DNA from: Patescibacteria group bacterium
GTDB taxonomy: Bacteria > Patescibacteriota > UBA1384 > XYA2-FULL-43-10 > 1-14-0-10-43-13
Assembly (NCBI GenBank): GCA_041666325.1
Contig: JBAYHC010000002.1
Coordinates: forward strand, 157,319-221,318
DNA: 64,000 nucleotides
Direction: 5' to 3'
Shown: positions 6,441 through 45,829 of the stretch, piece by piece
Layout: each line of letters starts with the position of its first letter
How positions within the stretch are numbered: position 1 is the first letter of the stretch
Translations under genes and position numbers: made by a program
Notes under the pieces: generated by a model
Told to the model about the DNA's origin: nothing
What the model saw: only the letters and a program-made list of their open reading frames with translations
The model's database searches: none

Positions 6441-6541
6441 ACTGAAGGTTGACAAAAGCGCCCTCTTTTTGAGATACTCAGAAGTCGTAAAGTACTATTT
6501 TTAACAATTATTAAATATAATAACTAGTCAGTTTCTGAAGC

Positions 6542-7877: not shown

Positions 7878-7906
7878 CTGATCCGGCGGCGGGGCCGCCG
7901 GATCAG
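7878..7906 (-). repeat. GC-rich hairpin copy A (13-bp stem CTGATCCGGCGGC / GCCGCCGGATCAG, 3-nt loop), immediately 3' of the minus-strand gene at 7915
   Basis: Perfect inverted repeat seen in the sequence; no U-tract follows it in the minus sense. It is near-identical to copy B at 8991-9019, differing by one compensatory base-pair change. Confidence 0.8.
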
Positions 7907-7914
7907 CGTGTGTG

Positions 7915-8850
7915 CTACAGCGTTCTGGCTGTCAGGACTGCGTATGGCTTCTGCGCCCTGACGTTGGTCAGCCGCCACTGATCGTTCCGGCGGTTGACTG
8001 TTACGATGTAGCTCGCCTTGGTGGCGCTGGCACCGCCAAGGATAGAGATCCAGCGGAAGTCTACCCGATACTTCCTGCCCTTCCAGAGGCAAGATGTCTC
8101 GATGGTAGGGGTGATGATTCCGGCCTCGTCGAGCGGAAGGTACGCCAGGTTGGCGCACCTCGTCGTCAGGCCGGGGTTTCCCTCGATGGCTCTGAGGCGA
8201 GCAAACTCCCTCTCGACGAAGGCCGCAGCCGGGTCCTCCTCTGCTCCGGCGTAGGGGTTCAGTCCGCGGTAGTCGTCCCCGATCAGGCTAGGATCGTGCC
8301 TGGGGAAGGGCGGAAGCGGAAAGCCACAGTGCTCGAGCGCCTCTTCGCGGCTGTCGACCTCACGGCCGATGCCCTCGAAAGCGACATTCCAGGACAGGGC
8401 ATTCATACCATAATATGGGATGGCCTCTGGTCTGACGTCGATGTCCCTCGCGGAGTTTATGATCTCCTTTTCCTTCCACTCGGGACAGTTCTTCTTCCTG
8501 TTGATGGTGTAGCGGTAGTGGCCGATCTCACGGCCGGTGGGGAAGCGGTAGATGAGGTGTGCGGCATTGCCGACTACTTCGACCTGGGTGTAATTCTCCA
8601 GGTTGGGCCATGCCTCGAAGATGGCCCAGACACGAGATTGCTCATCTGACCATTCTCCGGTGAAGGTTGGCGGCAGGGAGCCGCCTCGATAGTAGTGGAA
8701 GGTGCTGATGACCTTCTCTTCGTGCTCAGCGCATCGTTGCGACGCTTGCTCGATGTACGGCACTCCGATGCCCACTGCGATCATGCCGGCAAGCCCTGCG
8801 GCAATGAGTGTGGTCAATGCAGTTGCTGCTAGTCTTGTCAATCGTTCCAT
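7915..8850 (-). CDS. Hypothetical exported/membrane-anchored protein, high GC (cassette gene A). The ORF track extends to 8907; the likely start is the Met at 8850 (MERLTRL...)
   Basis: N-terminal hydrophobic segment (LAATALTTLIAAGLAGMIAVGIG), preceded by an AAGGAGAG RBS. GC about 62% versus about 45% for the flanking DNA. No family recognised. Confidence 0.5.
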   Translation of the reverse strand: MERLTRLAATALTTLIAAGLAGMIAVGIGVPYIEQASQRCAEHEEKVISTFHYYRGGSLPPTFTGEWSDEQSRVWAIFEAWPNLENYTQVEVVGNAAHLIYRFPTGREIGHYRYTINRKKNCPEWKEKEIINSARDIDVRPEAIPYYGMNALSWNVAFEGIGREVDSREEALEHCGFPLPPFPRHDPSLIGDDYRGLNPYAGAEEDPAAAFVEREFARLRAIEGNPGLTTRCANLAYLPLDEAGIITPTIETSCLWKGRKYRVDFRWISILGGASATKASYIVTVNRRNDQWRLTNVRAQKPYAVLTARTL

Positions 8851-8925
8851 CTTGCCTCTCCTTGCGTCGTGCACATTGGTGGGCTCGAGTGCCCAACCGA
8901 ATGACAAGCGCCAAACGATGGCTCC

Positions 8926-8943
8926 TGTTTGCGACGATCGAGA
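8926..8943 (-). promoter_or_regulatory. Conserved leader element (plus-strand text GTTTGCGACGATCGAG; minus-sense CTCGATCGTCGCAAAC) upstream of cassette gene A
   Basis: 16/17-nt identity with the element at 10038-10054 upstream of gene B. It sits inside ~130-nt leaders that are about 60-70% identical, while the two coding regions are unrelated. Confidence 0.55.
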
Positions 8944-8990
8944 TTGCTTAATCTAAACAATTATCGATTGTCACAAGAATGGTATTGTTA

Positions 8991-9019
8991 CTGGTCCGGC
9001 GGCGGGGCCGCCGGACCAG
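8991..9019 (-). repeat. GC-rich hairpin copy B (CTGGTCCGGCGGC / GCCGCCGGACCAG), 3' of the minus-strand gene at 9029
   Basis: Perfect 13-bp inverted repeat. It differs from copy A only by the A:T to G:C change at one stem position. Confidence 0.8.
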
Positions 9020-9028
9020 CTGGTATAC

Positions 9029-9970
9029 TTACTTTCGCCACGGCGGGTTGCCGAAGCGACCGAGCGGGATCTGTTTCGTCCCGGCCGTGCCGGTGGCGAT
9101 CAAGAAGTCCTCGGTGCATTCGAGCCTCTTGATGAGGCCGATCTTGGGGTTGATCCCCGTGAACATCTCGCCGAGCTTGTACTTATCCTCGAACGGCTGG
9201 TAGGCGCAGACCGCCCGAATAGTGCGGCCCTCCTCCTCGACAAGGAAGACCACGTCGTTGTGGCGGCGGTTGATTGCGAGGCAGCCGGTGCTGCCGGTGT
9301 TCTTGAACTGGGCGTCCTGGTACCGGGTGCTTTCGGACGGGCTGATGGTCTGGATGATCCCGTCCATCGTTGCGTAGGCGACTGCGCCGGTGCGCAGATC
9401 ATGGTCAAGTGCGGCCACCTCGGAGTTTTCGTTGAACCAGAGCGGCCTGCTCTGGTCCCTGGAGCAGACGGCCCAGCCGACCTTCGGCTTGGGCTCCATG
9501 ATCTGGTGCCAGGTCCTGACCCCGTACACCTGCTGATCGGGTGTGGACATGTAGGCAACCCCAACGAACTGCAGGTAGGCCTCCATGTAGGTGGCCGGCG
9601 TGAAGACCGGTGTTGACACGGCCTCCAGCCAGATGCGCATGCCCGGTTTGAGCTCCTTGAAGCGGAGGTAGTCCGGGTGGGTAGGCGGGATGCAGATCTT
9701 CCGCCAGCCGTCCTGCCCGTAGTTGACCTTGATAGTGATGTGCTTAGTGAAAGCGCGATCACTTCCCATCTGGTCCCCGTAGCTGATGGCGGTAACGACC
9801 CCGCCGTCAGCGAGCGGCTTGACGAACGCCTTCGCCTCCTCTTCGGCTCTCACCTCAGACCTTGCATTCAGGACGTCGTCCTGATGCCAGATCCAGGTTC
9901 CGACCCAGAGGGTCATGAGGATGAGGCAGAATCCAAGCGCGATCTTCAGTGACTTCTCGATCTCTGTCAT
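9029..9970 (-). CDS. Hypothetical membrane-anchored protein, high GC (cassette gene B). The ORF track extends to 10090; the likely start is the Met at 9970 (MTEIEKSLK...). It may be a Cys-dependent peptidase-like protein (STGCLAI)
   Basis: N-terminal TM (IALGFCLILMTLWVGTWIW) and a GGGAGAGAAAG RBS. The leader resembles that of gene A. A weak L,D-transpeptidase-like Cys motif is present, but the family is not established. Confidence 0.5.
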   Translation of the reverse strand: MTEIEKSLKIALGFCLILMTLWVGTWIWHQDDVLNARSEVRAEEEAKAFVKPLADGGVVTAISYGDQMGSDRAFTKHITIKVNYGQDGWRKICIPPTHPDYLRFKELKPGMRIWLEAVSTPVFTPATYMEAYLQFVGVAYMSTPDQQVYGVRTWHQIMEPKPKVGWAVCSRDQSRPLWFNENSEVAALDHDLRTGAVAYATMDGIIQTISPSESTRYQDAQFKNTGSTGCLAINRRHNDVVFLVEEEGRTIRAVCAYQPFEDKYKLGEMFTGINPKIGLIKRLECTEDFLIATGTAGTKQIPLGRFGNPPWRK

Positions 9971-10037
9971 CTGCTTTCTCTCCCAACGTCGCTGGTGGTG
10001 GCGGGTTCTTTTTCCCCAACCCAACTGCAAAGTACTC

Positions 10038-10054
10038 GTTTGCGACGATCGAGC
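10038..10054 (-). promoter_or_regulatory. Conserved leader element (CGTTTGCGACGATCGAG) upstream of cassette gene B
   Basis: Second copy of the element seen at 8926-8943. Confidence 0.55.
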
Positions 10055-10190
10055 TTGTCTGGTCTTGCCAAACAATTTCGATCGCCGCAACGTGTCGACT
10101 TTGAGAAAAATCTATTCTTTCTGATTGTTAAAGAACGTAATATCATATCATAATTTATTAAAATTGTCAATAGAGCCAAGGACAGACTGC

Positions 10191-11203: not shown

Positions 11204-12487
11204 ATGCTCGACATCAAAATAATTCGCGATAATCCGGAAGAGATAAAGCGCAGCATTACCAGAAAAGGTGCTGACTCTAATCTGGTTGACCAAGCGCTGG
11301 AGACTGATGAGAAGCGCCGCCAAGTTTTGGCTGAGATCGAACAAGTGCAGAGCGAACTCAATAGGCGTTCTTCTGATATTGCTCGACTGCATGGTCAGCA
11401 AAAAATTGATGCAATCAAAGAGGCCTCTCTTCTGTCCGACAAAGTCAAGGAACTAAAGCCGAAGGTTGATGAGATTAACGTCGACTTTAGAAAGATTATG
11501 CTAGATATTCCTAATCCGCCAGCTGACGATGTTATCGATGGTAAATCCGACAAAGACAACACGGTAAATAGGAAATGGGGTACTCCACCGCAATTTGATT
11601 TTCAGCCGAAAGACCATGTTAGCTTGGGCGAGACGCTCAACCTTATCGACATTGAACGAGCCGGCAAAATTTCAGGTTCTAGGTTTTATTTCTTAAAAAA
11701 CGAACTCGTGTTACTCGAGTTTGCCTTAATTAGGTATGCTTTTGATGTTTTGGTTGAAAATGGGTTTCAGCCGATGCTGCCGCCAGTGCTTCTTAATAGA
11801 CGAACGATGGAGGGCGCCGGCTATATTCCAGGCGGCGAAGATGAGATTTATCGAACTCAGGACGACACTTATCTGGCCGGTACAGCCGAACAACCGTTGG
11901 CAGGGTATCACATGGATGAGATTTTGGAGGAGAAGGAGCTGCCTTTGCGCTATGCTGGTTTTTCCTCGTGTTTTCGCAGAGAAGCAGGCAGCCACGGCAA
12001 AGACGTCAGAGGGATACTGCGAGCCCATCAATTTGATAAGGTTGAAATGTTCTCGTATGTTTTGCCGGAAGAGTCAGAGAAGGAGCACGACTACCTGGTT
12101 TCTTTGGAAGAAAAGATTGTCCAGGGCTTGGGTGTGCCATATCAGGTGGTCAATATTTGTGCCGGAGATCTTGGCGCGCCAGCAAGCAAGAAGTTCGATA
12201 TTGAATCTTGGATGCCAGGAGAGGACAGATATCGTGAAACGCACTCGTGTTCGAATGTAACAGACTTTCAGGCCAGGCGATTGAATATCCGCTATCGCAA
12301 AGACGATGGTAAGGTTCTGTATCTGCATACGCTGAACGGCACAGCCATCGCAATCGGGCGCATGCTTATTGCAATCATGGAGAATTACCAGCAAGCTGAT
12401 GGTAGCATCGTGGTTCCAGAAGTATTGCACAAATACGTTGGGTTCAAATCAATAAATACAAAAGCAAAAACCCAAAGTTTAAAATGA
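11204..12487 (+). CDS. serS: Seryl-tRNA synthetase
   Basis: Typical SerRS N-terminus (MLDIKIIRDNPEEIK...) with a coiled-coil arm and class II core motifs; 427 aa. Confidence 0.9.
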   Translation: MLDIKIIRDNPEEIKRSITRKGADSNLVDQALETDEKRRQVLAEIEQVQSELNRRSSDIARLHGQQKIDAIKEASLLSDKVKELKPKVDEINVDFRKIMLDIPNPPADDVIDGKSDKDNTVNRKWGTPPQFDFQPKDHVSLGETLNLIDIERAGKISGSRFYFLKNELVLLEFALIRYAFDVLVENGFQPMLPPVLLNRRTMEGAGYIPGGEDEIYRTQDDTYLAGTAEQPLAGYHMDEILEEKELPLRYAGFSSCFRREAGSHGKDVRGILRAHQFDKVEMFSYVLPEESEKEHDYLVSLEEKIVQGLGVPYQVVNICAGDLGAPASKKFDIESWMPGEDRYRETHSCSNVTDFQARRLNIRYRKDDGKVLYLHTLNGTAIAIGRMLIAIMENYQQADGSIVVPEVLHKYVGFKSINTKAKTQSLK

Positions 12488-12531
12488 CAGCGTCAGGTAT
12501 AATATTATTTTTCATTTGAGGAGATAGCCCC

Positions 12532-12873
12532 ATGAAAATACTATTTCACATAAAGGGAGTTGCTCTGACGGAACAGGAGAATAATGATATTGAGGAAAAG
12601 CTACAGGGATTGTCTCGTTTCGTTACTAGAGATGAGCCAGTGACTATAGACCTGTTTCTAATCGATGAGGCGGGCAAAAGAGCCAAGAACGGCCCCGACC
12701 AGATCGTCCACATCAACGCGCTTCTTTCTGGCGAGAACATCTTTATCGAAGAGCGGAACAGCCATCATATGCAAGCATTCTCAGAGGCGTATCATCGCTT
12801 CAAGAGAGCTTTGGAAGATCGTCATCGTAAGATGATTGACGAAGCAAAAGATTCTAATACTATGATTGAATGA
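12532..12873 (+). CDS. hpf: Ribosome hibernation promoting factor / RaiA (YfiA) family protein
   Basis: 113-aa protein whose layout matches the sigma-54 modulation/HPF family (short form), preceded by a TATAAT box. Confidence 0.55.
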   Translation: MKILFHIKGVALTEQENNDIEEKLQGLSRFVTRDEPVTIDLFLIDEAGKRAKNGPDQIVHINALLSGENIFIEERNSHHMQAFSEAYHRFKRALEDRHRKMIDEAKDSNTMIE

Positions 12874-12894
12874 ATTAATCATTGGGAGGCGCGA

Positions 12895-13128
12895 GTGTCC
12901 AACGATCAAAATGAGCAAACGGGTGTGCCAAATGACAACACCGATCATGTTGCGGATTTGAATTTAGCCGACGATGCTGACTTGGATATGGAGATCTTGC
13001 CTGACGACGGGGGAGTTAAAGTTGGTGGTGTTTGGTATTCATCACTTCAAAGTTACTTTGAAAAAAGAGAGGAAGAGTTGAAAAAACGAGCAGCAGGCGG
13101 CAGTGGTGGACAGGATCAGGCCAAATAG
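12895..13128 (+). CDS. Small acidic hypothetical protein (77 aa, GTG start)
   Basis: ORF only; low-complexity D/E-rich sequence. Confidence 0.3.
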   Translation: MSNDQNEQTGVPNDNTDHVADLNLADDADLDMEILPDDGGVKVGGVWYSSLQSYFEKREEELKKRAAGGSGGQDQAK

Positions 13129-13265
13129 GTAGAATAGGTTGTCAATACTAAAATCCGAGTTGCAAATGCTAAATGCGTTTTCCGGTGACGAAAATCAAAA
13201 CATCTAGGTATTAAGTCATTTAGTTTTTGTTTGGTATTAGAAATTAGGAATTTGGAATTATTTTT

Positions 13266-16115
13266 ATGTCATTATTCGATTTAATCGTTAAAAGTCCAAA
13301 CAAGAAGGTTCTGCGCGATCTTCAAGACCAAGCGGAGAATGTTTCCGCTTTTGAAGACTCTATTAAAAAACTTTCTGATGAAGAACTAAGGGCAAAAACA
13401 GCTCAATTTAGAGAAATGATCGAAAGGGAGCGGAAAAAAGGATTGAGTGACGCAAATATTGCGACTCAATTACTTTCCGAAGCTTTTGCTGTTATGCGCG
13501 AGGCGATGCGTCGCGTTTGGAATGAGCGCCACTTCGATGTTCAGGTTATGGGTGGCATAGTGCTGCACCAGGGCAAGATTGCTGAGATGAAAACTGGTGA
13601 GGGCAAAACGATTGTTGCGGCGTTGCCGCTTTATCTGAATGCTCTTTTCGGTCGGGGCGCGCATTTGGTTACAGTTAACGACTATTTGTCCCGCCGTGAC
13701 GGTGAGGGCATGGGTGATGTTTACCACTTCTTGGGATTGTCGACGGGCATAATTCAAAGCAATTTCCAAACTTTCAAATTCGCCAAAAATGTTGATTATG
13801 GTCATTATTCTGAAGCAGAGGGCAAAAATCTAGAGCCCTGCTCTCGCACAGAGGCGTATGCCTGTGATATTACATACGGTACCAATAACGAATTTGGCTT
13901 TGATTACCTCCGCGACAATATGATTTTCCGACTTCCGGATGCCTCTCAACGCGAGCTTTATTATGCCATCGTCGATGAGGTGGACTCAATTTTGATTGAT
14001 GAGGCTAGAACGCCGTTGATTATATCTGCTCAAGCCGAGGAATCAACTTCTCTCTATCAACAGTTTGCAGCGCTTGTTCCGCGCCTGAATCCTGGCGAAG
14101 ATTATTCGGTTGACGAGAAAGATCGCGTTGTCACATTGACCGACTCTGGTATCCAAAAAATGGAGAAGATGCTCGGGGTTAAAAATATTTATGAGGGCGA
14201 TGGCATTGCTCTTGTCCACCATCTCGAGGAGGCACTCAAAGCTCATGCGCTCTTCAAGCGCGACAAAGACTACGTCGTCAAGGACGGCGAGATCGTTATC
14301 GTCGATGAGTTCACGGGCCGCCTTATGGTTGGTCGTCGTTACTCAGAGGGTTTGCATCAAGCAATCGAGGCCAAAGAGGGGGTCGAGGTCAAACAAGAAT
14401 CGCAGACATTAGCTACGATCTCATTTCAGAACTTTTTCCGCATGTACAAAAAGCTTGCCGGCATGACAGGAACGGCGGCGACCGAAGCGGAGGAGTTCTT
14501 TAAAATATACAAGCTTGATGTTGTTGAGATTCCAACAAACAGGCCAGTCACGCGTAAAGATTCTACTGACCGTATCTACAAGACATCAGAGGCAAAGTGG
14601 AATGCGATTGTTGCGGATATTAAGATATGCCAGGAGCAAGGACAACCTGTTCTTGTTGGAACGGTTTCGGTCGAGAAAAATGAGATGCTTTCCAAGCTTC
14701 TCAAGCGCGCCGGAGTGAAGCACGAGGTGCTCAACGCGAAACATCACGACCGGGAGGCAAAGATCGTCGCGAAGGCCGGAGAATTTGGTGCCGTGACTGT
14801 GGCTACCAACATGGCCGGGCGCGGCACAGATATCAAGATCGGCAAGGAGATTAAGGAGATTGGCGGTCTCCATGTCATCGGAACCGAGCGTCATGAAGCG
14901 CGTCGTATCGATAATCAGTTGCGCGGTCGTGCTGGACGCCAAGGTGACCCCGGTTCCTCTCAGTTTTATGTTTCTCTGGAAGATGACCTGATGCGTATCT
15001 TTGGTGGCGACCGGATCAAGAGCCTGATGAACTCACTGGGTTTGCCTGATGAGATGCCGATTGAAAACAGAATGATCTCTAAGTCGATCGAATCAGCCCA
15101 ACGCAAGGTGGAGGGCCACAACTTTGACATAAGAAAACATCTGGTTGAGTATGACGATGTCATGAACAAACACCGCGAGGTGATTTATCGCAAGAGACGG
15201 GAAATTTTAGAGGCAGAGGGTGGAAAACGAAAGATAGAAATCGATAATGATGAGGCGTTCGATGCCGAGGATGAGCAAACGACCCTCAGAGAGGAAATTC
15301 TAAGCATTATCTCTGATGAGGTCAGGCTCGTCTTGGAGTCTGTTGAAGATGAAGAGGCAGCGAAAAAGGAGCTCTCCGCCATATTCGGCACATCCGACCT
15401 CCCGCTGAATGAAGAGAAGCTCATCGAGATCAGTGAGAGGATGTATGACGAACGTGAGCGAAAATTTAGTCCCGAGTCGATGAGAGAGATCGAAAAAGCG
15501 GTCTATCTCCGCACGATTGATATGCTTTGGGTTCAGCACTTAACAACAATGGATGAGCTCAGAACCGGTATCGGGCTGCGTGGCTACGGACAACGTGATC
15601 CCCTGGTTGAATACAAGCAGGAATCATATCGTTTGTTTCAACAGCTGCTAAAAAGTATCGAGCTCTCCGTGGCGCGGACCATATTTAAGGTTGAAGTTAG
15701 GATCGAGGCTGCACCGATGACAGCTAAGCCTTTGCAATACGAGAAGCCAGATCTTGATGAGATTGGTGGTGTCGAGGATGAGGTTCTGGAGATAGAGGAA
15801 AAGACAGAGGAGGCGAGAGGGCGACCCCACTACGCTGAAGCTTCGCGGGGCGAGAAGGGCGATCCGTCTCGACGAGGCCGAGTCGAGGCGGAAGGCGGAA
15901 GTGAGTCGCAGCACGAAGCTCCAAATAATACTCGTAGCAATGATTCTGGGGGTGTGACGACCACTGTTCGATATGGCGGCAAGACGGTTTATGAAAGAAT
16001 GAAGGAATCATCAGGCGGACAGGTGGCGACGGTACGAGGCAAAGAAAAGGTTGGCAGAAATGATCCTTGTCCTTGCGGATCCGGCAAGAAATTCAAAAAG
16101 TGTCACGGAAAGTAA
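13266..16115 (+). CDS. secA: Preprotein translocase ATPase SecA
   Basis: DEAD-like motor motifs, including the Walker A sequence MKTGEGKT, and a C-terminal zinc-binding tail (CPCGSGKKFKKCHG); 949 aa. Confidence 0.95.
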   Translation: MSLFDLIVKSPNKKVLRDLQDQAENVSAFEDSIKKLSDEELRAKTAQFREMIERERKKGLSDANIATQLLSEAFAVMREAMRRVWNERHFDVQVMGGIVLHQGKIAEMKTGEGKTIVAALPLYLNALFGRGAHLVTVNDYLSRRDGEGMGDVYHFLGLSTGIIQSNFQTFKFAKNVDYGHYSEAEGKNLEPCSRTEAYACDITYGTNNEFGFDYLRDNMIFRLPDASQRELYYAIVDEVDSILIDEARTPLIISAQAEESTSLYQQFAALVPRLNPGEDYSVDEKDRVVTLTDSGIQKMEKMLGVKNIYEGDGIALVHHLEEALKAHALFKRDKDYVVKDGEIVIVDEFTGRLMVGRRYSEGLHQAIEAKEGVEVKQESQTLATISFQNFFRMYKKLAGMTGTAATEAEEFFKIYKLDVVEIPTNRPVTRKDSTDRIYKTSEAKWNAIVADIKICQEQGQPVLVGTVSVEKNEMLSKLLKRAGVKHEVLNAKHHDREAKIVAKAGEFGAVTVATNMAGRGTDIKIGKEIKEIGGLHVIGTERHEARRIDNQLRGRAGRQGDPGSSQFYVSLEDDLMRIFGGDRIKSLMNSLGLPDEMPIENRMISKSIESAQRKVEGHNFDIRKHLVEYDDVMNKHREVIYRKRREILEAEGGKRKIEIDNDEAFDAEDEQTTLREEILSIISDEVRLVLESVEDEEAAKKELSAIFGTSDLPLNEEKLIEISERMYDERERKFSPESMREIEKAVYLRTIDMLWVQHLTTMDELRTGIGLRGYGQRDPLVEYKQESYRLFQQLLKSIELSVARTIFKVEVRIEAAPMTAKPLQYEKPDLDEIGGVEDEVLEIEEKTEEARGRPHYAEASRGEKGDPSRRGRVEAEGGSESQHEAPNNTRSNDSGGVTTTVRYGGKTVYERMKESSGGQVATVRGKEKVGRNDPCPCGSGKKFKKCHGK

Positions 16116-27017: not shown

Positions 27018-27599
27018 TCACCGAGGCGAGAACTTGATCGGAAAGGTCTTGGTCGCACTCTTGCCTTTCCACTCGATCTTGACCAGGACCTCGCCACGGT
27101 CCATCTTGGGGAGCAAGACGCTCTCTTCGTGTTCGAAAATGAAGACGTCCTTTGGCGGTGCCAAGGAACGCCACTCGTAGGAGATGACCGGAGTCATCCT
27201 GCCTGCGATCTTCTCGTGGTGCATGTAGAACTTGCTTGTCTCGAACTTGCGACGCCGGTAGGCGATGTAGTGGCCGTTTGCGTCACGTAACCAGATGTGG
27301 GTAGTTAGCCCACGGATCAGGGGTACCCAGGCGAACACCTGCATGCTGTTGATGTCGGTGTACTGGAAGGACTTGCCGTTCGGGTCCAGGCCGGACTCGA
27401 ACTGGGGCAGGGCCTCCTTTGTTACCGTAACAAGGGCCTTCTCAAAGAAGGTGCTGGGCTGGTAGCTGCGGATCTTCTCCTCGCGCAGGTCTTCGCGACT
27501 CCCCTTGACTGTCTCGCAGCGCAAATCCGGCGGGATAGGTCCCGCAAGCGCCGCCGACATGGCCGTGACGACCAAGGTTATAATCAGCCGTTGTTTCAT
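27018..27599 (-). CDS. Hypothetical secreted protein, high GC. The ORF track extends to 27716; the likely start is the Met at 27599 (MKQRLIITLVVTAMSAALAG...)
   Basis: Signal-peptide-like N-terminus, GGAGGGA RBS, and an upstream TTGCAC-17-TACAGT promoter at about 27618-27646 (minus sense). No family recognised. Confidence 0.5.
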   Translation of the reverse strand: MKQRLIITLVVTAMSAALAGPIPPDLRCETVKGSREDLREEKIRSYQPSTFFEKALVTVTKEALPQFESGLDPNGKSFQYTDINSMQVFAWVPLIRGLTTHIWLRDANGHYIAYRRRKFETSKFYMHHEKIAGRMTPVISYEWRSLAPPKDVFIFEHEESVLLPKMDRGEVLVKIEWKGKSATKTFPIKFSPR

Positions 27600-27681
27600 C
27601 GGTATCCCTCCGTCTCTCTGCCTGGCGGTGATACTGTACAATATTTTGCCTTTTTGTGCAATAGTTAGCGACAGGACGAAG

Positions 27682-27711
27682 AAAAAAGCCAGCGGGCTAT
27701 ATGCCGCTGGC
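27682..27711 (-). terminator. Intrinsic terminator of the WD40-like gene (GCCAGCGG-GCTATATG-CCGCTGGC followed by U6 in the minus sense)
   Basis: Perfect 8-bp stem directly after the stop codon at 27713, followed by TTTTTT on the minus strand. Confidence 0.7.
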
Positions 27712-27712
27712 G

Positions 27713-28627
27713 TCAAAGGGTCAGGCCCTGGATGAGGCCATTATCGAGCGCAATATAAAGTGTATCCGGCGAAGCGGCAAGAGATGTAATTCTTCGATTG
27801 AAACGCATAACATTTGCAACTCGCTCGCAGTTACCGAGTTGTTCGAATAGTCCCAGTCTGAACACATCTTCGTTGTCTTCCTTGATCGCCGCTGCTAAAA
27901 TTTTGTCCCAGAGCGTCATGGCAGTAATCCAGCCATAATAAGTTCCAATGAAACGACCCTCGCGCCGCTCTGCCGCCACCTCCTCGACTAGATGCAAGCG
28001 TACCTCAGCTTGCGAGCCAATGGCAATCAGGTCTTTGCCGTAGGGGCCACAGGGCCGGATCGAGCTCATTGACCAGGCAAAACTTGTTCCATTGGTGCAA
28101 CCATCGTAATCTTCCTCGAAATCTCCCCAGCGATAGCGCTTGGTCTGTGCATCCGTTACGGCGATCAGATTCTTCTGTGAGTCAAAGTGGAGGCCAACCA
28201 CATTCTCTTTGCTGATCGGAATAAACTTGAGAAGACCGGGCAAGTGGATGTCCCAGATGCCAATCCCCTGGCAACTTCCACTGGCAATCAGGCCATTATT
28301 ACTGAAAGCCAAGGCCATTATCACATTCTTGTCGTGCGGGGAGTAGATCGCAACAGGATTTACCTCCCCTGGTTCTTCTTCAAGGCTATGGAGATAGATA
28401 TCGCCCTTAACGTTGCCGTAGGCTGCCAACTTGCCATCAGGTGAGACTGCTTGAGCGGTGAAATTGCGCAAGAAAGTGCCAGAGCTAGTCCTAACTTTCT
28501 GCTTCGTGTTGTAGACCCAGAAGCCTTTGCCGGCAGTGGCAACAAGCACCAGGCCATCATCGGAGATGACTAGCCTTGGTATATCCCCCTTCTTTATTCC
28601 AAGATGGGCCAAGTTGTAAAGGTTCAT
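27713..28627 (-). CDS. WD40/beta-propeller repeat protein (hypothetical)
   Basis: Repeated GxxDGxxxAxxxxxxxIxLW-type units (PDGKLAAYGNVKGDIYLHSL; GLIASGSCQGIGIWDI). Strong GGAGGTGA RBS. Confidence 0.55.
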   Translation of the reverse strand: MNLYNLAHLGIKKGDIPRLVISDDGLVLVATAGKGFWVYNTKQKVRTSSGTFLRNFTAQAVSPDGKLAAYGNVKGDIYLHSLEEEPGEVNPVAIYSPHDKNVIMALAFSNNGLIASGSCQGIGIWDIHLPGLLKFIPISKENVVGLHFDSQKNLIAVTDAQTKRYRWGDFEEDYDGCTNGTSFAWSMSSIRPCGPYGKDLIAIGSQAEVRLHLVEEVAAERREGRFIGTYYGWITAMTLWDKILAAAIKEDNEDVFRLGLFEQLGNCERVANVMRFNRRITSLAASPDTLYIALDNGLIQGLTL

Positions 28628-28703: not shown

Positions 28704-30815
<2,112 letters not shown>

Positions 30816-30847: not shown

Positions 30848-31303
30848 ATGGAGAATTTAGGACCAAAAGACATCAATGGTTTGTCTGAGAAGGACAGACA
30901 GATGCTGGAGCCTGGTGCGAAGGGCGAGAAGAAACCTGGTGCGGACGCAAAACCAGACAACGTCAGATCTCAGGACTCGCGCGAAGCAGGCGTTCTGCGC
31001 AAAATGGCACGCATAGCCAAGGATAAGGGTGAGATAGTTAAGCTCTTGGCGATGATTGCCAGCTATGAGCATGAGGTTCCGGGCAAGCGGCCGCAGCCTC
31101 CTATTCAGAAGACGGCTATTGTTCGGAATGAGTACGAAGGCCAAGTGGGCACTTCTCAGTCCAAAGCCATCCAGAGTGCTGAGTCTCGGCCGGTCAACAA
31201 ATCGCAAGCCTTTGAATTCGGCGGAAAACAGATAAATGTTTCGTCTCGAAGCCAGGAAAAAGGCACCAATCCACCCGGATCAGCGCAGGGAATCCCTGTT
31301 TAA
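30848..31303 (+). CDS. Hypothetical protein (151 aa), lysine/glutamate-rich
   Basis: ORF followed by a weak terminator-like hairpin at about 31333-31362. No family recognised. Confidence 0.4.
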   Translation: MENLGPKDINGLSEKDRQMLEPGAKGEKKPGADAKPDNVRSQDSREAGVLRKMARIAKDKGEIVKLLAMIASYEHEVPGKRPQPPIQKTAIVRNEYEGQVGTSQSKAIQSAESRPVNKSQAFEFGGKQINVSSRSQEKGTNPPGSAQGIPV

Positions 31304-31368
31304 TATTCAAAAAATGATGTCCTACACGTAAAATATGGTACATGGGCAAGGTCCCGGCCCAATTTTGT

Positions 31369-31397
31369 TGTTGCCCTCTTGACAAATATCCACGCCT
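31369..31397 (+). promoter_or_regulatory. Near-consensus sigma70 promoter (TTGACA-17-TGgTAGCAT) driving a non-coding GC-rich unit
   Basis: -35 TTGACA at 31369-31374, 17-nt spacer, extended -10 TGgTAGCAT ending at 31397. The predicted transcription start is about 31405. Confidence 0.6.
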
Positions 31398-31404
31398 GTG
31401 GTAG

Positions 31405-32550
31405 CATATTGGCCATATCGTCGATGACGTGAGCGACGTTCGGAAGGAAAGGACGGAGGAATGAAGATCCTCGCTGTTCGCTGACCGACACGCGGCGCGG
31501 GCGCTCCTGGCGAGCGCGGATGGTACTGACCTCTTGTAGGTCTGCGGCGAGGCCTTGCCTCACCCATCCGGTTTACGCCAGGCGGGCGTTCGTCCGCCCA
31601 GTTCAAAATCACTTCTGACGAGTTTCCGTCGGCCCAAACCGGCGGAAGGGTCCCGCAGGCAAACCCCTCCAGGGGGTCCGACCGCGACAACGCGGGACTC
31701 ATCACGATGACGGGAGGTACGCATGGTCACGACGCGCACCTCCGCCCAGCACAGCGTTAAGGCCGCTGGCTAGCCAGGCGGACGTCATCACCCACCCTTC
31801 GGTTCGGGAGGCGCGAATGAGGGTAACACCAAGAACGCGCGCCCGCATGGCGCAGGCATTCGGTGCCTGACCAGCCAGCGGGTCACATCATGTCGACTGC
31901 AAGACCGCACGACCAGGCTCCGGCTGATAACATCATGCCGGAACGCCAAAACAATGCGAATAGGAGCCGCTCGACTGAGCGCGGCGCGGACTTGATCCGG
32001 GCAGCCTTCCGCTCAGCGCCATTGAGCTCCTTGCCCCACATGGGGCCGCAATGCAGACGAGGGCCAGCGCCAAATCGGCCCTCACAAGTGCGTTTCAAGC
32101 AGTACCCACCAATAAAGCCCCGGTGAAACTCCGGGACCCTCAGCAAGCAGTGCCTACTAATGTCCGGGTGCAATTCCCGGCTCATGAGGTGCAAGATGAC
32201 TACATGCCAAGTGGCGACGGCGCGGGAAGAGGGTTCCCGTCTGCTATCGCCCCTGGGGTAGTCCACGGAGGGGTCCGGCGGGCGCGGGTTCGAAACCAGC
32301 GCAAAGCCGGCACAGACCGCCGACTAGGTCAAGTGCACAGGCCTAGACGGCCCAGAACGGGCAGCGCCCCTGCCCCGGCCCGCCAGCCTCAGGCTGGAAG
32401 ACAAAAAGGGGTCGGGCGCCTCACGGCGCGCCCACAGGACGCCGGCGCAAGCGCCGGCCGGATCACTCCGCGGGCGTGGGGAGAGCGGCTTTCGCCGCCT
32501 CCCCGCCCCAATCTCAGACGGCAGTCAACCACGACTGCCTGTTTTTTTTA
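31405..32550 (+). ncRNA. Candidate large structured non-coding RNA (about 1.15 kb, about 65% GC); class undetermined
   Basis: Bounded by a strong promoter and a canonical intrinsic terminator. It contains only short Arg/Pro-rich frames typical of GC-rich non-coding DNA, and has many local and long-range stems. A sub-segment (about 32108-32160) loosely resembles the RNase P CR-II/P11 region (GGTGAAACTCC...AGCAAG). No tmRNA or RNase P identity could be established by eye. Confidence 0.4.
32520..32550 (+). terminator. Intrinsic terminator (GGCAGT-CAACCACG-ACTGCC followed by TGTTTTTTTT)
   Basis: Perfect 6-bp GC stem followed by a U8 tract. Confidence 0.8.
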
Positions 32551-32563
32551 TTTAGAATCCATA

Positions 32564-32601
32564 TTATGCTGAAAACAGTCGATCGTGTATAATCAGCATA
32601 A
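32564..32601 (+). promoter_or_regulatory. Operator-like 9-bp inverted repeat (TTATGCTGA...TCAGCATAA) enclosing GTCGATCGTG and the TATAAT -10 of the PaaX-like gene
   Basis: Perfect IR seen in the sequence. It overlaps the TATAAT box at 32588-32593, about 35 nt upstream of the ATG. This is copy 1 of the motif TGCTGAAnAnnGTCGATCGTGyATA. Confidence 0.5.
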
Positions 32602-32631
32602 GATTATTTAGTACTCAAACAGGAGTGGGCG

Positions 32632-33228
32632 ATGACAAATATCAGAGGTAAGAAGATCATAGAATGGAGAGACGAGAACTACTATAGACGCAGAAGACCG
32701 ATGGCCCAAAAAGCAAGATCTACCGTTGAAGCAACGCTTGATCTGTTGTTGGCAGTGCCGGAGAGTTTGGTGGCAGTGTTTGAGCGAAGGTCAATCTACG
32801 AAGCAATAAGCACTTCTTCGGAAAAAGTGTTGACGGTTGAGAATATCAGTAAGATTTTTCATGGCCTGAAGCGCACTGGATACATCGAAACTACCAAGGA
32901 CAGTAGTGGCCTTGAGTCAGTCCAATTTACCAATAAAGCTAAGCTAAGAGTCATTGATGCAATTGCCGGTTGCCAGGGTTGGGATGAGAAATATCGTTTG
33001 GTTTCATTTGATATTCCTGAACGAATGAGGAACAATCGCGACAAGTTTCGTCGGGCAATCAAGAGGATCGGATTTAGGCAGATCCAAAAAAGCCTCTGGG
33101 TATGCAATCGGAACGTCGAAGAGCTGGTCGGCGTCGCATCGAACGAATACGGTGTTTCGACCTACACTGTCTGTGTCATTGCCGACAAGACAGATATCGA
33201 TAGCGCTATCAGCAAGATGTTCAAATAA
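32632..33228 (+). CDS. PaaX-like transcriptional regulator (N-terminal winged helix plus PaaX_C-type C-terminal domain)
   Basis: wHTH-like segment (ISKIFHGLKRTGYIE) and a C-terminal region colinear with E. coli PaaX (WDEKYRLVSFDIPERMRNNRDKFRRAIKRIGFRQIQKSLWV versus WDGKWLLLLSEGL...VKKQLIWQGFGALAPSLMA). AGGAGTGGG RBS. Confidence 0.6.
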   Translation: MTNIRGKKIIEWRDENYYRRRRPMAQKARSTVEATLDLLLAVPESLVAVFERRSIYEAISTSSEKVLTVENISKIFHGLKRTGYIETTKDSSGLESVQFTNKAKLRVIDAIAGCQGWDEKYRLVSFDIPERMRNNRDKFRRAIKRIGFRQIQKSLWVCNRNVEELVGVASNEYGVSTYTVCVIADKTDIDSAISKMFK

Positions 33229-33259
33229 GGGTGGATATATTTTTTGAATGAAGAATCCT

Positions 33260-33287
33260 CTGCTGAATATCGTCGATCGTGCATAGG
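33260..33287 (+). promoter_or_regulatory. Second copy of the motif (CTGCTGAATATCGTCGATCGTGCATAGG), downstream of the PaaX-like gene and upstream of the second GC-rich unit
   Basis: 20 of 23 positions identical to copy 1 at 32569-32595. Confidence 0.45.
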
Positions 33288-33386
33288 CATAGGAAGATAT
33301 GAAGACGCGGTGGCGGGAAACATTTTTGTGGATAAATATTTAATTCAGGTATTGCAATTGCCGGAAAGTCTGCTAACATAGCATTA

Positions 33387-33765
33387 AATCTGGCAGGGCC
33401 AGCACTATCCAGTCCGGAGTTTACTCCTGTAAAGGTCGAGGACTGGAATCGGCTCTGTTGGGTTCGAGTCAGTGGTTGGCACCCCTCTGCGGGGTCGCAG
33501 CGCCGCTGGCTCTAGGAGAACACCATTGCCACTCACTCTCCGCCGGCCGTCGTGGTCGGCAACAGCAACAAGCTGATCGATGCTGCGACCCGGAACGACC
33601 TGGGCGCGCACGCCAAGCAGGAGTCCCTGACGGGCTGACACATCACCAACAACCACAGCCATAAGGGGAACGAAGGGGTCATTGACCCGAGTTGATGCCA
33701 CCGGGGCATCGACATCGACATGCGGGAGCATGCACCCACCCGGGGTGTGTGCCCCCGCTCTTTTT
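33387..33765 (+). ncRNA. Second candidate structured non-coding RNA (about 380 nt, GC-rich); class undetermined
   Basis: Candidate promoter TTGCAA-16-TAACAT (33353-33380). Downstream hairpin CGGGG-TGTGTGC-CCCCG followed by CTCTTTTT at about 33741-33765. No credible ORF. Contains a T-loop-like GGGTTCGAGTC sequence, but no tRNA fold could be built around it. Confidence 0.3.
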
Positions 33766-33977
33766 GTATCCAGGGTGCAAGCAGCAATATGAAGGGCGAG
33801 AGCAAGGGGATCCTTTGCGCGAATTCGTTCGAATCAATGTCGAAGGATTCAGGATGACAGGGCGGCAGGATGGCGGGAAAGAGGAGCGTCCTTGAATCCG
33901 GAGTCTGGAAGTGGTAAGCTGAGGCCATAGTTCTTAAAGTTTGTAAAGTTCTTAAAGTTGAAATGTAAATTTCTATA

Positions 33978-34295
33978 TTGCCTTATGAACCTTATGAACA
34001 AATTGACATGATTGATATCGAACAAGTAAAACATATTGCCAAGTTGTCTCGATTGGAATTAACACCCGAAGAGGAGAAGAAATACTCAGAACAGCTCTCC
34101 TCGATTTTGGATTATGTTGAACAATTAAATGAAGTTAATACAGACGGTATTCCGCCCATGGCCAATATTACCGGCATGTCCAACGTGTTTCGCGATGACG
34201 GAGTAGAGCCATCCGGTATTTCGCATACCGACATTGCTCAGAATGCGCCAGAGTTTAGAGACGGGTCTTTTGTCGTGCCAGGAGTATTTGAGTGA
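33978..34295 (+). CDS. gatC: Asp/Glu-tRNA(Asn/Gln) amidotransferase subunit C
   Basis: GatC-like sequence (VKHIAKLSRLELTPEEEKKYSEQLSSILDYVEQLNEV) immediately upstream of gatA. The start may be the Met at 34008. Confidence 0.8.
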   Translation: MPYEPYEQIDMIDIEQVKHIAKLSRLELTPEEEKKYSEQLSSILDYVEQLNEVNTDGIPPMANITGMSNVFRDDGVEPSGISHTDIAQNAPEFRDGSFVVPGVFE

Positions 34296-42809: not shown

Positions 42810-43892
42810 TTATCGAACGCTTGTTTCCTCTGATGTGGCAAGCAGCCTTGCTTGGTCTTCGGAGACTAGACTGTTCACGATAGGTTCAAGGTCGCCGTCC
42901 AGAATACGAGGCAGACTGTGCCAAGATTCATTAATTCGGTGATCAGTGAGACGGTCTTGGGGGAAATTGTAGGTTCTAATTTTTTCAGATCGGTCACCTG
43001 TGCCGACCTGCGATCGGCGTGCGTCACCACGCTCTTTAGCCAGTCGCTCTTCTTCTGCTGCAAGCAAACGAGAACGTAGGATACTAAGGGCTTTTTCTCT
43101 ATTTTTCAGTTGGCTTTTTTCGTCTTGACAGGACACCACTGTGTTGGTTGGGAGGTGTGTGATACGGACGGCAGAGTAGGTAGTGTTGACTGACTGGCCG
43201 CCCGGGCCAGTGGCACAGAAGGTGTCAATTCGAAGATCTTCGGGCTTGATTGCAATATCAGCTTCCTCTGCTTCCGGCAGTACGGCTACAGTGATGGTTG
43301 ATGTGTGGATGCGACCAGCCTTTTCTGTCTCTGGAACACGCTGAACACGATGCACGCCGCTTTCGTATTTCATCTTTGAATAAACGTTGCGCCCGTTTAT
43401 TTGGAATGTGATTGACTTCAGGCCGCCGATCGGTGAAGGTTGCGAGTCGAGTATCTCTATCTTCCATTCTTGTCGCTCGGCATAACGGGCATACATCCTG
43501 AAGACTTCTGCTGCAAATAGCTCAGATTCATCGCCTCCCGCACCGGGCCTGATTTCGATGATGACGTTTTTTTCATCGTTTCTGTCTTTGGGCAGGATGG
43601 CAATTTCCATTTCTTTCTCAAGTTCTCCAAATTCTCTTTCAAGGTCTGCTAGCTCAGCCTGTGCGATCTCGGCCAACTCTGGGTCGATGCCGCTATTGAT
43701 AATGTCTTGGTTCTCGGAAATGTTTCTCTGCACTGCAAAATAACGTTCAATTCTCTCTGCAAGGGGTGCGATATCTGCTTTTTCCTTGGAGATTTTGACA
43801 AATTGAGCTTGGTCTTGTGTGATCATGGGATCGTTTAATCTTTGTTCAAGATTGCGATAGTTGTCTAATATTTTTTGCAGTTTCTCATTCAT
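42810..43892 (-). CDS. prfA: Peptide chain release factor 1
   Basis: GGQ motif ([10 protein letters not shown]) and PxT-region sequence of RF1; 360 aa. Confidence 0.9.
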
Positions 43893-44080
43893 AAGATTTT
43901 CCTAATCATATATGGACGACAGACTTAATGGACGACGGATTTAAGCATAAAATTTTTGTTGGTTGCTTTGCCTGACTTTGGTCGAGGTTGGAGTCTGTTA
44001 GTTCGTTTTTTTATTTGGTTAATTAAAAACCGGCCTTTGTTTCTCTGCTCTCAAGAAGGCGGAGATAGTGCCGGTTTTAA

Positions 44081-44166
44081 TTATAACAAGATATGATAAT
44101 GCCCGATAGGGCGACAAGGCGTTACAAGAAGCGAAGCGCACTTATAACAAGATATGATAATGCCCG
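44081..44166. repeat. Two perfect 25-bp direct repeats (TTATAACAAGATATGATAATGCCCG at 44081-44105 and 44142-44166); similarity extends over about 45 bp
   Basis: Seen directly in the sequence. The repeats lie in the prfA upstream / rpmE downstream intergenic region. Confidence 0.8.
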
Positions 44167-44211
44167 GCGACAGTGCGTTAAACGAGTGAAACGAGTATAA
44201 CTTAAAATCAA

Positions 44212-44499
44212 CTACTCTTCAGCAGTTTCTTTTTTGATTTTTTCTTTCTTTGCTTCAGCCTTAGTGTTTGCTTTTGCCTTTTCGGCTTCGGCCTTTTCAC
44301 GTGCAGCCACGCGAGCTCTGAACTTATCGACTCGTCCTGCTGTGTCGACTAGCTTTTGCTTGCCGGTGTAGAAAGGATGACAGGATGAACATATTTCAAC
44401 CTTGATGCCTTCTTGCGTCGAGCCAACAGAATAAGTTGCGCCACAGGCGCAAGTGATGACGGTATCATTGAAATATGTTGGATGGATACTTGGTTTCAT
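44212..44499 (-). CDS. rpmE: 50S ribosomal protein L31 (zinc-ribbon form) with a K/E-rich C-terminal tail
   Basis: MKPSIHPTY...CxC...[13 protein letters not shown]31 signature. Confidence 0.85.
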
Positions 44500-44928
44500 T
44501 TAAAACACCTAAAACTTAAGAACTAAAGAACAAAAAACGAAATCAGGCTCGTTTTTTATATCAACGAGATAAATATATCACACTATTGAATCTATGTAAA
44601 TAGTCTGCTATACTCCATCGAGTAATCCTCATCATTGAGGAAGCGGATCCTCCTTCGCTCGGGTTTGCCTCGAATCTTTCAGTTTTGCAGGCAAAACTGC
44701 GCTGTGGAGAACGCACCCTTGGGCAAAGCCCGAGGAGTACACACGTCCATCTCAAATTCTTTCCCGGTTTACCGGGAGTGTTGGGCGGAGGTTTAAAAAA
44801 GAATTAGCGCCGAGCAAAGCTTGGCAGCCCCTGCTAAATTACGAATTGCTCAAAATTACGAATAGTATTTGTAATTTCGTACTTTCGTTTAGTTTGTATT
44901 TTCGTAGGGGACTAGAAAGGAATATTTT

Positions 44929-45645
44929 ATGGCTACGACATTACCAACGTTGCGTAATCTCTTGGACGCAGGTGTTCATTTTGGACACAAAACATCTCGT
45001 TGGCATCCGGCAATGGAGAAGTATATTTTTACATCCAAATCTGGCGTGCATGTTATCAACCTTGAGTCGACCGCAGAGAAAATGGCCGAGGCTGTTAATT
45101 TTTTGAAGGAACTTTCCGCTTCGGGCAAAACAGTCATGTTTGTTGGCACAAAGAAGCAAGCTGCAAATATCATCAAAGTTGCAGCTGAAAATTGTGGCAT
45201 GCCGTTTGTAAACTCTCGCTGGCTTGGCGGGACTCTTACCAACTTTGACATTATCCGGGGTTCTGTCAAAAAGTTCGAGAAGAACAAGAAAATGCTCGAG
45301 GGCGAAGAGGCTAACGCACTATCAAAGAGAGACCGAACCAAATTAAAAGAAGAAACTGAAAAGGCAGAGAAGGTTTTGGGTGGACTCGTCAAACTTGAGA
45401 AAAAGCCTGATGCGTTAATTCTGATTGGTGCTCATGATGAGAAAAATGCTCTTCGTGAGGCAAAAAATGCTGGCATTCCAGTCATTGCTATTGTTGATAC
45501 CAACACAAACCCCAGTCTGATCGACTATCCAGTGCCGGCAAATGATGATGCCACCAAATCAATCGAACTTTTCGCTAACCTTTTTTCCCAGATTATCAAG
45601 GAGAATAAGGGAGCAGTAGTTGAGAAAAAAGAAGAAACAAAATAG
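44929..45645 (+). CDS. rpsB: 30S ribosomal protein S2
   Basis: LLDAGVHFGHKTSRWHP and other S2 signature sequence; tsf follows. Confidence 0.9.
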   Translation: MATTLPTLRNLLDAGVHFGHKTSRWHPAMEKYIFTSKSGVHVINLESTAEKMAEAVNFLKELSASGKTVMFVGTKKQAANIIKVAAENCGMPFVNSRWLGGTLTNFDIIRGSVKKFEKNKKMLEGEEANALSKRDRTKLKEETEKAEKVLGGLVKLEKKPDALILIGAHDEKNALREAKNAGIPVIAIVDTNTNPSLIDYPVPANDDATKSIELFANLFSQIIKENKGAVVEKKEETK

Positions 45646-45829
45646 TTTATAAAGTTAAAAGTTCCTAAAGTTTGTAAAATAGCTCTCATCTGTCGGGGGT
45701 CATCCCAACCCATTGATCTTTGAGGCGGAGGGATCCTCCAGCATGCTAGATTAAATCTCTCAGAATAACTTTATTGCTTTATAACCTTACGAACTTTATA
45801 AACTTTATGAACTCTAATCAAGGAGTTTT

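Follow-up and report, generated by a model that had tools for sequence, protein, structure and literature searches.

One of the questions raised by the genome of a Patescibacteria group bacterium is what a GC-rich segment of about 1.1 kb, lying between the genes ligA and gatCAB, is there for. We looked at this segment within 64,000 nt of contig JBAYHC010000002.1 (hereafter the window). An earlier note, made from the letters of the window alone, had described it as a promoter-to-terminator unit and had proposed it as a candidate for a large structured RNA of unknown class. Based on our analysis, the reading that fits best is that the segment is a stand-alone non-coding transcription unit on the plus strand, of lateral or cassette origin, which acts as RNA and is perhaps repressed by a PaaX-like protein. 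We give this reading a probability of about 0.45, a little short of even odds. The more ambitious claim, that the segment is the first member, so far from a single species of Patescibacteria, of a new class of large structured RNA (~1.1 kb) driven by a strong promoter and possibly tied to the PaaX_M protein, appears rather unlikely. The unit is real and unusual; it is an orphan, a non-coding singleton without comparative evidence, and cannot carry the claim of a new RNA class.

According to the reading that we favour, RNA polymerase would initiate near 31414, at a promoter of host type whose -35 element is perfect and whose -10 element is extended, and would stop at a hairpin-U8 terminator, which would yield an untranslated RNA of ~1,135 nt. 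The unit is a lineage-specific GC-rich cassette inserted in the variable gap between ligA and gatCAB, most probably acquired laterally or having arisen together with the other GC-rich cassettes of the genome. Its product would act as RNA, either as a trans-acting or scaffold RNA or as the product of a young RNA gene, and its start might be under the control of the neighbouring PaaX-like repressor through a ATATCGTCGAT half-site at +1. A GC content of 65-73% without a coding relic, in a genome of ~46% GC, argues that the DNA was already non-coding on arrival or that selection maintains its GC content.

Borders and composition of the unit

The segment is bracketed on the plus strand by a promoter and an intrinsic terminator and, from these signals in the sequence, it can be regarded as an independent transcription unit, in agreement with the earlier description of a discrete unit around a block of 65% GC. 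The promoter (31379-31407, plus strand, score 10/12) is of the sigma-70 type and consists of TTGACA (31379-31384), a 17-nt spacer, the TG of an extended -10 element (31399-31400) and TAGCAT (31402-31407), with transcription predicted to start at about 31413-31415 on the same strand. The near-consensus sigma70 promoter with an extended -10 that the earlier note reported is thus present, while the position given for it (31369-31397) was 10 nt too far left. Of the 28 promoter-like sites with a score of 10/12 or more in the 64-kb window, only four combine a perfect -35 with TG; the other three, at 6449(+), 10170(-) and 10191(+), precede real genes.

At the other end stands an intrinsic terminator (32520-32549, plus strand) with a 7-bp stem that includes five G-C pairs, closed by a 6-nt loop (32520-32539) and followed by U8 (32542-32549). 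It had been recognised before, with its U8, at 32520-32550, although the stem was then counted as 6 bp and measures 7 bp. Only two terminators of the 64-kb window, this one included, combine a stem of 5 bp or more with a run of seven T or more.

Between the two signals the GC content is 0.649 overall and 0.60-0.735 per 200-nt window (31400-32599). The flanks are at ~0.45, most 1-kb bins of the window lie at 0.42-0.50 and the genome is at roughly 46% GC, which bears out the GC-rich character that the segment had been given against surroundings of ~45% GC. The edges of the GC-rich block match the promoter and the terminator, since the 200-nt windows are GC-rich between both signals and at ~0.45 outside them. 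The body of the segment (31430-32519, ~65% GC) has more A than U on the plus strand and shows no coding signal. The locus is 100% identical, over up to 20 kb, in four independent assemblies from different samples, with identical junctions of the segment; the segment is therefore not an assembly artefact or a chimera. The window stems from a metagenome-assembled genome of the Patescibacteria (CPR), and its contig is also found as ENA ERZ27249449 k141_236529 and NCBI GCA_041659665.1.

Coding signal, RNA families and relatives

The absence of a credible open reading frame (ORF), which had been claimed from inspection, is upheld by several measures. The longest stop-free stretch has 194 codons against 187 +/- 47 in dinucleotide shuffles (P = 0.37), and stretches of at least 100 codons number three, with 4.9 expected from the same shuffles. 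The period-3 Fourier peak of the segment is 1.6 times the median, against 4.9-28 for the real genes of the window, GC-rich ones included, which speaks against coding; over 31500-31860 the three codon phases have level GC, with no local period-3. A codon model was trained on the three GC-rich genes of the window, for which the true frame scored 0.32-0.40 bits/codon in leave-one-out runs. When this model was applied to the segment, the best-of-six window scores were near zero and the best full-length frame reached -0.094 bits/codon, no better than shuffles (P = 0.31), a result that also dismisses a nonsense-only pseudogene in the frame of the ATG at 31461. A recoded genetic code is excluded because every frame holds all three stop codons, TAA, TAG and TGA.

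Two ORFs of the segment were searched individually. ORF173 (173 aa, 32051-32572, plus strand), called by two of four gene callers, is Arg/Pro/Gly-rich, scores -0.19 bits/codon and extends 24 nt beyond the terminator; against 5.8 billion protein clusters it matched only itself. ORF127 (127 aa, minus strand) has neither a Shine-Dalgarno (SD) site nor a promoter and found no match among 1.84 billion representative proteins. Searching the six translated frames as one concatenated query gave no homologue among the matches listed, a weak null given that the self-match was not listed either. Comparison by tblastn of the ORFs of the window and of related loci with the segment gave only noise, also for the PHP gene found in the ligA-gatC gap of relatives, and by this test the segment is not a pseudogene of the PHP gene or of any of these ORFs. 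What would be expected of a protein-coding gene or a recent pseudogene is thus missing from the segment, with one marginal exception. A coding-like stretch of 146 stop-free codons on the minus strand (31886-32323) has GC1/2/3 of 0.60/0.56/0.73 and scores 0.002 bits/codon against a null of -0.20 +/- 0.10 (per-stretch P ~0.02, family-wise ~0.1); it may be the relic of a GC-rich gene, or chance.

If the segment does not encode a protein, is it then a known RNA? Rfam 15 was scanned with cmscan at the gathering score over the whole window, which gave 0 matches, and in E-value mode (E <= 10) over 31200-34100 and, with laxer filters, over two 600-nt halves, which gave matches to unrelated families at 19 bits or less, regarded as noise. 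Since there is no Rfam 15 match, the segment is not RNase P RNA, tmRNA, GOLLD, ROOL, OLE, raiA, HEARO or an intron; no known family was found, and the identification as an ordinary known RNA that could have overturned the proposal did not appear. The loose resemblance to RNase P that had been seen in one sub-region did not hold up: neither type A nor type B matched even at E <= 10, and the hallmark GAGGAAAGTCC and the CR-V patterns, the CR-I/CR-V (P4) strands, are missing from both strands of the segment. ARAGORN found no tRNA and no tmRNA in the whole window and, as Rfam found no rnpB or ssrA either, the suggested composite rnpB/ssrA precursor falls as well. A group I or II intron is rejected by the lack of an Rfam match, by the failure to find a D5-like (domain V) pattern in the segment and by an intergenic location with its own promoter. 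The signatures of tmRNA, group I/II introns and P4 that had not been placed by eye are therefore also absent by Rfam, ARAGORN and pattern search. Rfam gave no T-box or riboswitch either, and the idea of a ribosome sponge was dropped since neither SD nor anti-SD motifs are enriched in the segment.

The suggested kinship with the large ornate RNAs was also not sustained, as no covariance model of GOLLD, ROOL, OLE, raiA or HEARO matched even at E <= 10. The segment resembles these RNAs in being ORF-free, in falling in a size range of several hundred to ~1,000 nt, in being GC-rich relative to its genome, in its predicted extensive folding and in forming its own intergenic unit. It differs in lacking any family of homologues and in having a structure that is predicted only. 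GOLLD and ROOL typically occur in a phage or prophage context beside tRNA genes, whereas the segment has no phage or tRNA-cluster context: no tRNA occurs in the window, and ligA, gatCAB and a PaaX-like gene surround the segment. Unlike OLE, none of its annotated neighbours is a known ribonucleoprotein-partner gene, although oapA/B/C were not searched by name. A further parallel is offered by the GC-IGR/DIMPL surveys, in which long GC-rich intergenic regions yield unclassified RNA candidates; these count as structured RNAs only once covariation is seen among their homologues (PMC8723152, PMC11109978). The segment, as an unusually long, GC-rich intergenic region with its own transcription signals in a lower-GC genome, looks like such candidates; unlike the accepted RNAs, it has no homologue that we could find, and by the standard of these surveys it therefore remains a singleton candidate.

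Homologues were looked for in at least 25 related loci, reached through ligA in GTDB genomes and through contigs of PaaX-like homologues, and nhmmer found no trace of the segment in them. Phage and plasmid collections gave no match. Six word scans of viral contigs and two of metagenomes, one of them with a degenerate pattern from an internal tandem module and the metagenome ones in a collection that does not include the source contig itself, gave nothing or chance matches of 23-24 nt, and neither the window nor a further 9 kb of the contig contains a paralogue. The closest LigA among GTDB species genomes is 67% identical and the closest PaaX homologue 56% identical; the 90% protein clusters of the neighbour genes and of the spurious ORFs contain a single member or only length variants of one sequence. 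Relatives with a 41-67% identical LigA lack the segment. They keep the ligA-gatC-gatA synteny, with a gap of 60-1,400 nt that holds a PHP-family gene or small ORFs. The segment is a lineage-specific insert in the variable ligA-gatC gap.

Internal features, strand and rival explanations

Several features of the segment bear on what its product might be. At the predicted +1 to +11 (31415-31425, plus strand) lies ATATCGTCGAT, an exact copy of the left half of a CGATCG-core palindrome found 3' of the PaaX-like gene (33267-33277). The 64 kb contain three exact copies, and with one mismatch allowed there are 4 matches against 1.0 expected; by its sequence, the copy at 31415-31425 may be a candidate repressor half-site. 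It is followed by a purine-rich, SD-like leader (GGAAGGAAAGGACGGAGGA), an ATG at 31461 and a 7-codon mini-ORF, MKILAVR, that ends at a TGA (31482-31484; the whole 31442-31484, plus strand), which might encode a leader peptide or be what is left of an earlier gene start. Three further small ORFs of 16-21 aa with an SD-like site occur within the body of the segment.

The local hairpins and longer-range complementarity pointed out in the earlier note were all found, at 31648-31656/31693-31701, 32119-32135 and 31975-31981/32010-32016. A long-range inverted repeat with arms at 31763-31779 and 31865-31881 can be drawn on either strand, with 16 continuous pairs on the minus strand (two of them G-U) and 14/16 on the plus strand, where two A-C mismatches interrupt it. 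Two tandem 48-nt modules (32096-32143 and 32144-32191, together 32096-32191, plus strand) each consist of CAAGCAGTRCCYACYAAT and a 5-bp hairpin, CCCGG-TGAAACT-CCGGG in the first and CCGGG-TGCAATT-CCCGG in the second, and one stem pair is C-G in copy one and G-C in copy two. This tandem pattern, observed twice, has an expectation of 0.00 in shuffles.

Does the segment fold better than it should? Against dinucleotide shuffles it has a folding z of -5.1 on the plus and -5.7 on the minus strand. The control values are -4.2 and -5.3 for the GC-rich protein genes 7915-8907 and 9029-10090 (the latter termed GCgene2) and -1.1 for ligA. In 150-nt windows the mean local z is -1.6 for the plus strand of the segment and -2.0 for its minus strand, -1.3 and -1.6 for the GC-rich coding genes, and -0.6 and -0.1 for the native genes ligA and gatA. 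Pair confidence is 0.86 on the plus strand, 0.77 on the minus strand and 0.88 in GCgene2, and pair-probability measures fail to separate the segment from GC-rich coding sequence. Since GC-rich protein genes of the same window score alike, the excess folding energy is non-specific, and folding z-scores were discarded as evidence for structure. The reading as a large structured RNA of a new class was built on folding energy and hairpins, which GC-rich coding genes match, and is left unsupported.

The choice of strand is helped little by the fold. The plus strand is favoured by its transcription signals, by A exceeding U and by more high-confidence pairs (37% of nucleotides in pairs with a probability >0.9, against 27% on the minus strand), while GNRA loops, a helix with G-U pairs and a lower folding energy favour the minus strand; structure-type evidence leaves the strand ambiguous, and a search for tertiary-motif and hallmark patterns in the segment was uninformative.

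A number of observations weigh against a functional plus-strand RNA. All four copies of the locus are 100% identical over 20 kb and thus offer no variation and no evidence of selection; no homologue came out of the related loci or of the phage, plasmid, viral and metagenome scans, so there is no covariation; and the folding z and pair confidence are no better than those of the GC-rich coding genes. The others point towards one or another of the rival explanations. The most serious of these, which we regard as possible though doubtful, is that the segment is a non-functional remnant of a laterally acquired GC-rich ORFan cassette that has lost its frame and may still be transcribed into an inert RNA, an alternative that is raised by the very nature of a species-specific insert in a genome with several GC-rich, foreign-looking islands. 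Several GC-rich ORFan cassettes do stand between housekeeping genes, and the promoter type of the segment is shared with GCgene2 and with a GC-rich island of a Berkelbacteria locus (L030). At the 5' end, an SD and an ATG lead into MKILAVR and a stop, an arrangement that resembles the start of a signal peptide and could be the stump of a former secreted-protein gene. A 40-codon piece in a second GC-rich island of the window (33516-33635, plus strand) has true GC-rich-gene codon usage (0.47 bits/codon) and, together with the marginal stretch at 31886-32323(-), suggests that the GC-rich DNA around here includes decayed genes. An orphan with a non-specific folding excess is also what such a remnant would be. 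Yet no frame keeps a residual codon signal (P = 0.31) and 31500-31860 has no local period-3; a decay that erased the codon signal should also have eroded the 65-73% GC in an AT-leaning genome. The sole relic candidate within the segment lies on the strand opposite to the promoter, the segment is unlike all the ORFs compared with it, from the window and from related loci, and the best terminator of the window has been retained.

Three further explanations are less probable. The functional product could be encoded on the minus strand, as one or more RNAs transcribed leftward from a divergent promoter in the palindrome of the PaaX-like gene, for example a short GNRA-hairpin RNA from ~32555 to 32405. 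Four GNRA-tetraloop hairpins are present on the minus strand against 0 on the plus strand (P = 0.01), three of them within 32413-32505. The minus strand also has the lower minimum free energy (MFE) and z-score, and the G-U pairs needed by the 16-bp helix exist only there; a promoter-like site is present at 32591-32563(-) and a terminator-like site at 32434-32413(-). This promoter scores only 9/12, however, the terminator has a 5-nt spacer before U5, pair confidence is lower (0.77 vs 0.86) and the signals of the plus strand are much stronger. Because U exceeds A on the minus strand, its G-U pairing and lower MFE are expected by composition alone, and we consider this explanation quite improbable. 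Very improbable, too, is a long cis-acting leader, in which the 1.1-kb RNA would be a regulatory 5' untranslated region and conditional read-through of the terminator would control the PaaX-like gene and gatCAB with the 7-codon mini-ORF as leader peptide. The segment is co-oriented with these genes, ~80 nt separate its terminator from the PaaX start codon downstream, and the SD of the short ORF at the 5' end is predicted to be sequestered in a hairpin. Against this, the PaaX-like gene comes with a promoter and a palindromic operator of its own, and so do leader-free homologues in other genomes; relatives express gatCAB without a leader, and no T-box or riboswitch was matched in Rfam. To our knowledge, no attenuator or riboswitch comes near 1.1 kb, all being far shorter.

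The least probable explanation, to which we give very little credit, is an ORFan protein encoded by ORF127 or ORF173. Of the six frames, the one at 31886-32323(-) reaches the best codon score, and its phase pattern is GC3-like. On the other strand, the 18-nt conserved part of the tandem modules differs at three positions, each a third base and synonymous in the frame of ORF173 (QAVPTN in both copies; chance ~0.07, which deserves little weight), and two of the four gene callers do call this ORF. The two hints, however, fall on different strands, the ORF lengths are at chance and neither ORF has a homologue in the databases searched; ORF173, Arg/Pro/Gly-rich and with its negative codon score, passes through the terminator, and ORF127 has no signal for its expression, be it SD or promoter.

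The plus-strand non-coding unit stays our preferred reading. If its RNA is indeed made and has a function, the reduced genome of an episymbiont, with little room for spare DNA, would harbour a large non-coding RNA, and a gene without relatives among billions of sequences would be very young or very fast-evolving.

Neighbouring genes and other GC-rich cassettes

To the left of the segment are ligA (28725-30815) and a gene for a 151-aa hypothetical protein (30848-31303); to the right are the gene of a 198-aa PaaX_M/Cas2-like protein (32632-33228), a second GC-rich island (33380-33900) and gatC (33978-34295). The PaaX-like gene, which combines a winged helix-turn-helix with a Cas2-like PaaX_M domain, is part of a cassette (32561-33298, plus strand) that abuts the terminator and is made of a palindrome (32561-32604), the gene and a degenerate second palindrome (33261-33298). 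A 30-38-nt palindrome, its CGATCG core invariant, flanks PaaX_M/Cas2-like genes on one side or on both in seven loci: the two sites of the window, L030 (5955-5992 and 6607-6642), L035 (4650 and 5298), L029 (1356 and 1992), L026 (877), L023 (659) and L037 (5560). Where both copies are present they are near-identical within a genome, while the arms differ between genomes. Such palindromes might serve as a pair of autoregulatory operators or mark where a small mobile cassette ends; the genes themselves are found in many different genomic contexts.

The second island (~60% GC) has no supported gene. The codon usage of its piece at 33516-33635 indicates that at least some of the GC-rich DNA around the PaaX-like gene is relic coding sequence. 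A 108-aa minus-strand ORF annotated there in the database has no codon-usage support, and the plus strand of the island has a folding z of -3.7 and a terminator-like hairpin at 33741-33757.

Elsewhere in the window, GC-rich ORFan genes sit between housekeeping genes at 7915-8907(-), 9029-10090(-) and 27018-27716(-), the first two in a cassette group (7915-10170) between greA and serS. They have a period-3 of 12.7-25, a GC content at third codon positions (GC3) of 0.74-0.83 and transmembrane or signal-like N-termini. No Pfam, NCBIfam or PADLOC family was found for them, and a phage origin was discarded as there was no phage match. Two of these genes share a leader motif CTCGATCGTCGCAAAC (8927-8950 and 10038-10060, minus strand), and a 30-nt block is repeated at 7878-7907 and 8991-9020 with 93% identity. 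One gene caller missed the 353-aa ORF among these genes and called antisense shadow ORFs instead (L040).

GCgene2 has a promoter with TTGACA and a TG-extended -10, like the segment, and a promoter of the same type is found in L030 at the GC-rich island beside the orthologous PaaX gene. This island holds a small secreted-protein gene and 440 nt of GC-rich non-coding sequence. The latter (L030 6690-7130, downstream of the secreted-protein gene) can form two long hairpins that share CCGGCCGGAG...CTCCGGCCGG arms and has a very well-defined predicted fold (z -4.05); it shows no sequence similarity to the segment.

Like the GC-rich ORFan cassettes of the window and of L030 (6690-7714), the segment is a lineage-specific GC-rich insert between housekeeping genes with a similar excess of folding energy, and like GCgene2 and the L030 island it has its promoter placed in an AT-rich border. 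Unlike the ORFan cassettes it lacks a strong period-3 or GC3, and there is no sequence similarity between them. More secure than a function of the segment is the finding that GC-rich, lineage-specific cassettes with strong promoters accumulate between the housekeeping genes of this Patescibacteria lineage, and that one of these cassettes, the segment, is ORF-free; this pattern bears on the gain and loss of foreign DNA.

Two other long gaps of the window, 43892-44929 (~1.0 kb) and 12487-13266 (~0.8 kb), have normal GC, no ORF of at least 120 aa and no Rfam match. Finally, a tandem motif AGTTCWTAAAGTT with a 9-nt period occurs at 33929-33959, 45644-45672 and 45783-45813 in the window (12 matches against 3.5 expected) and at ~7990-8110 in L030. 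It lies upstream of gatC in the window and upstream of ligA in L030, and two assemblies break at 33958, within this repeat.

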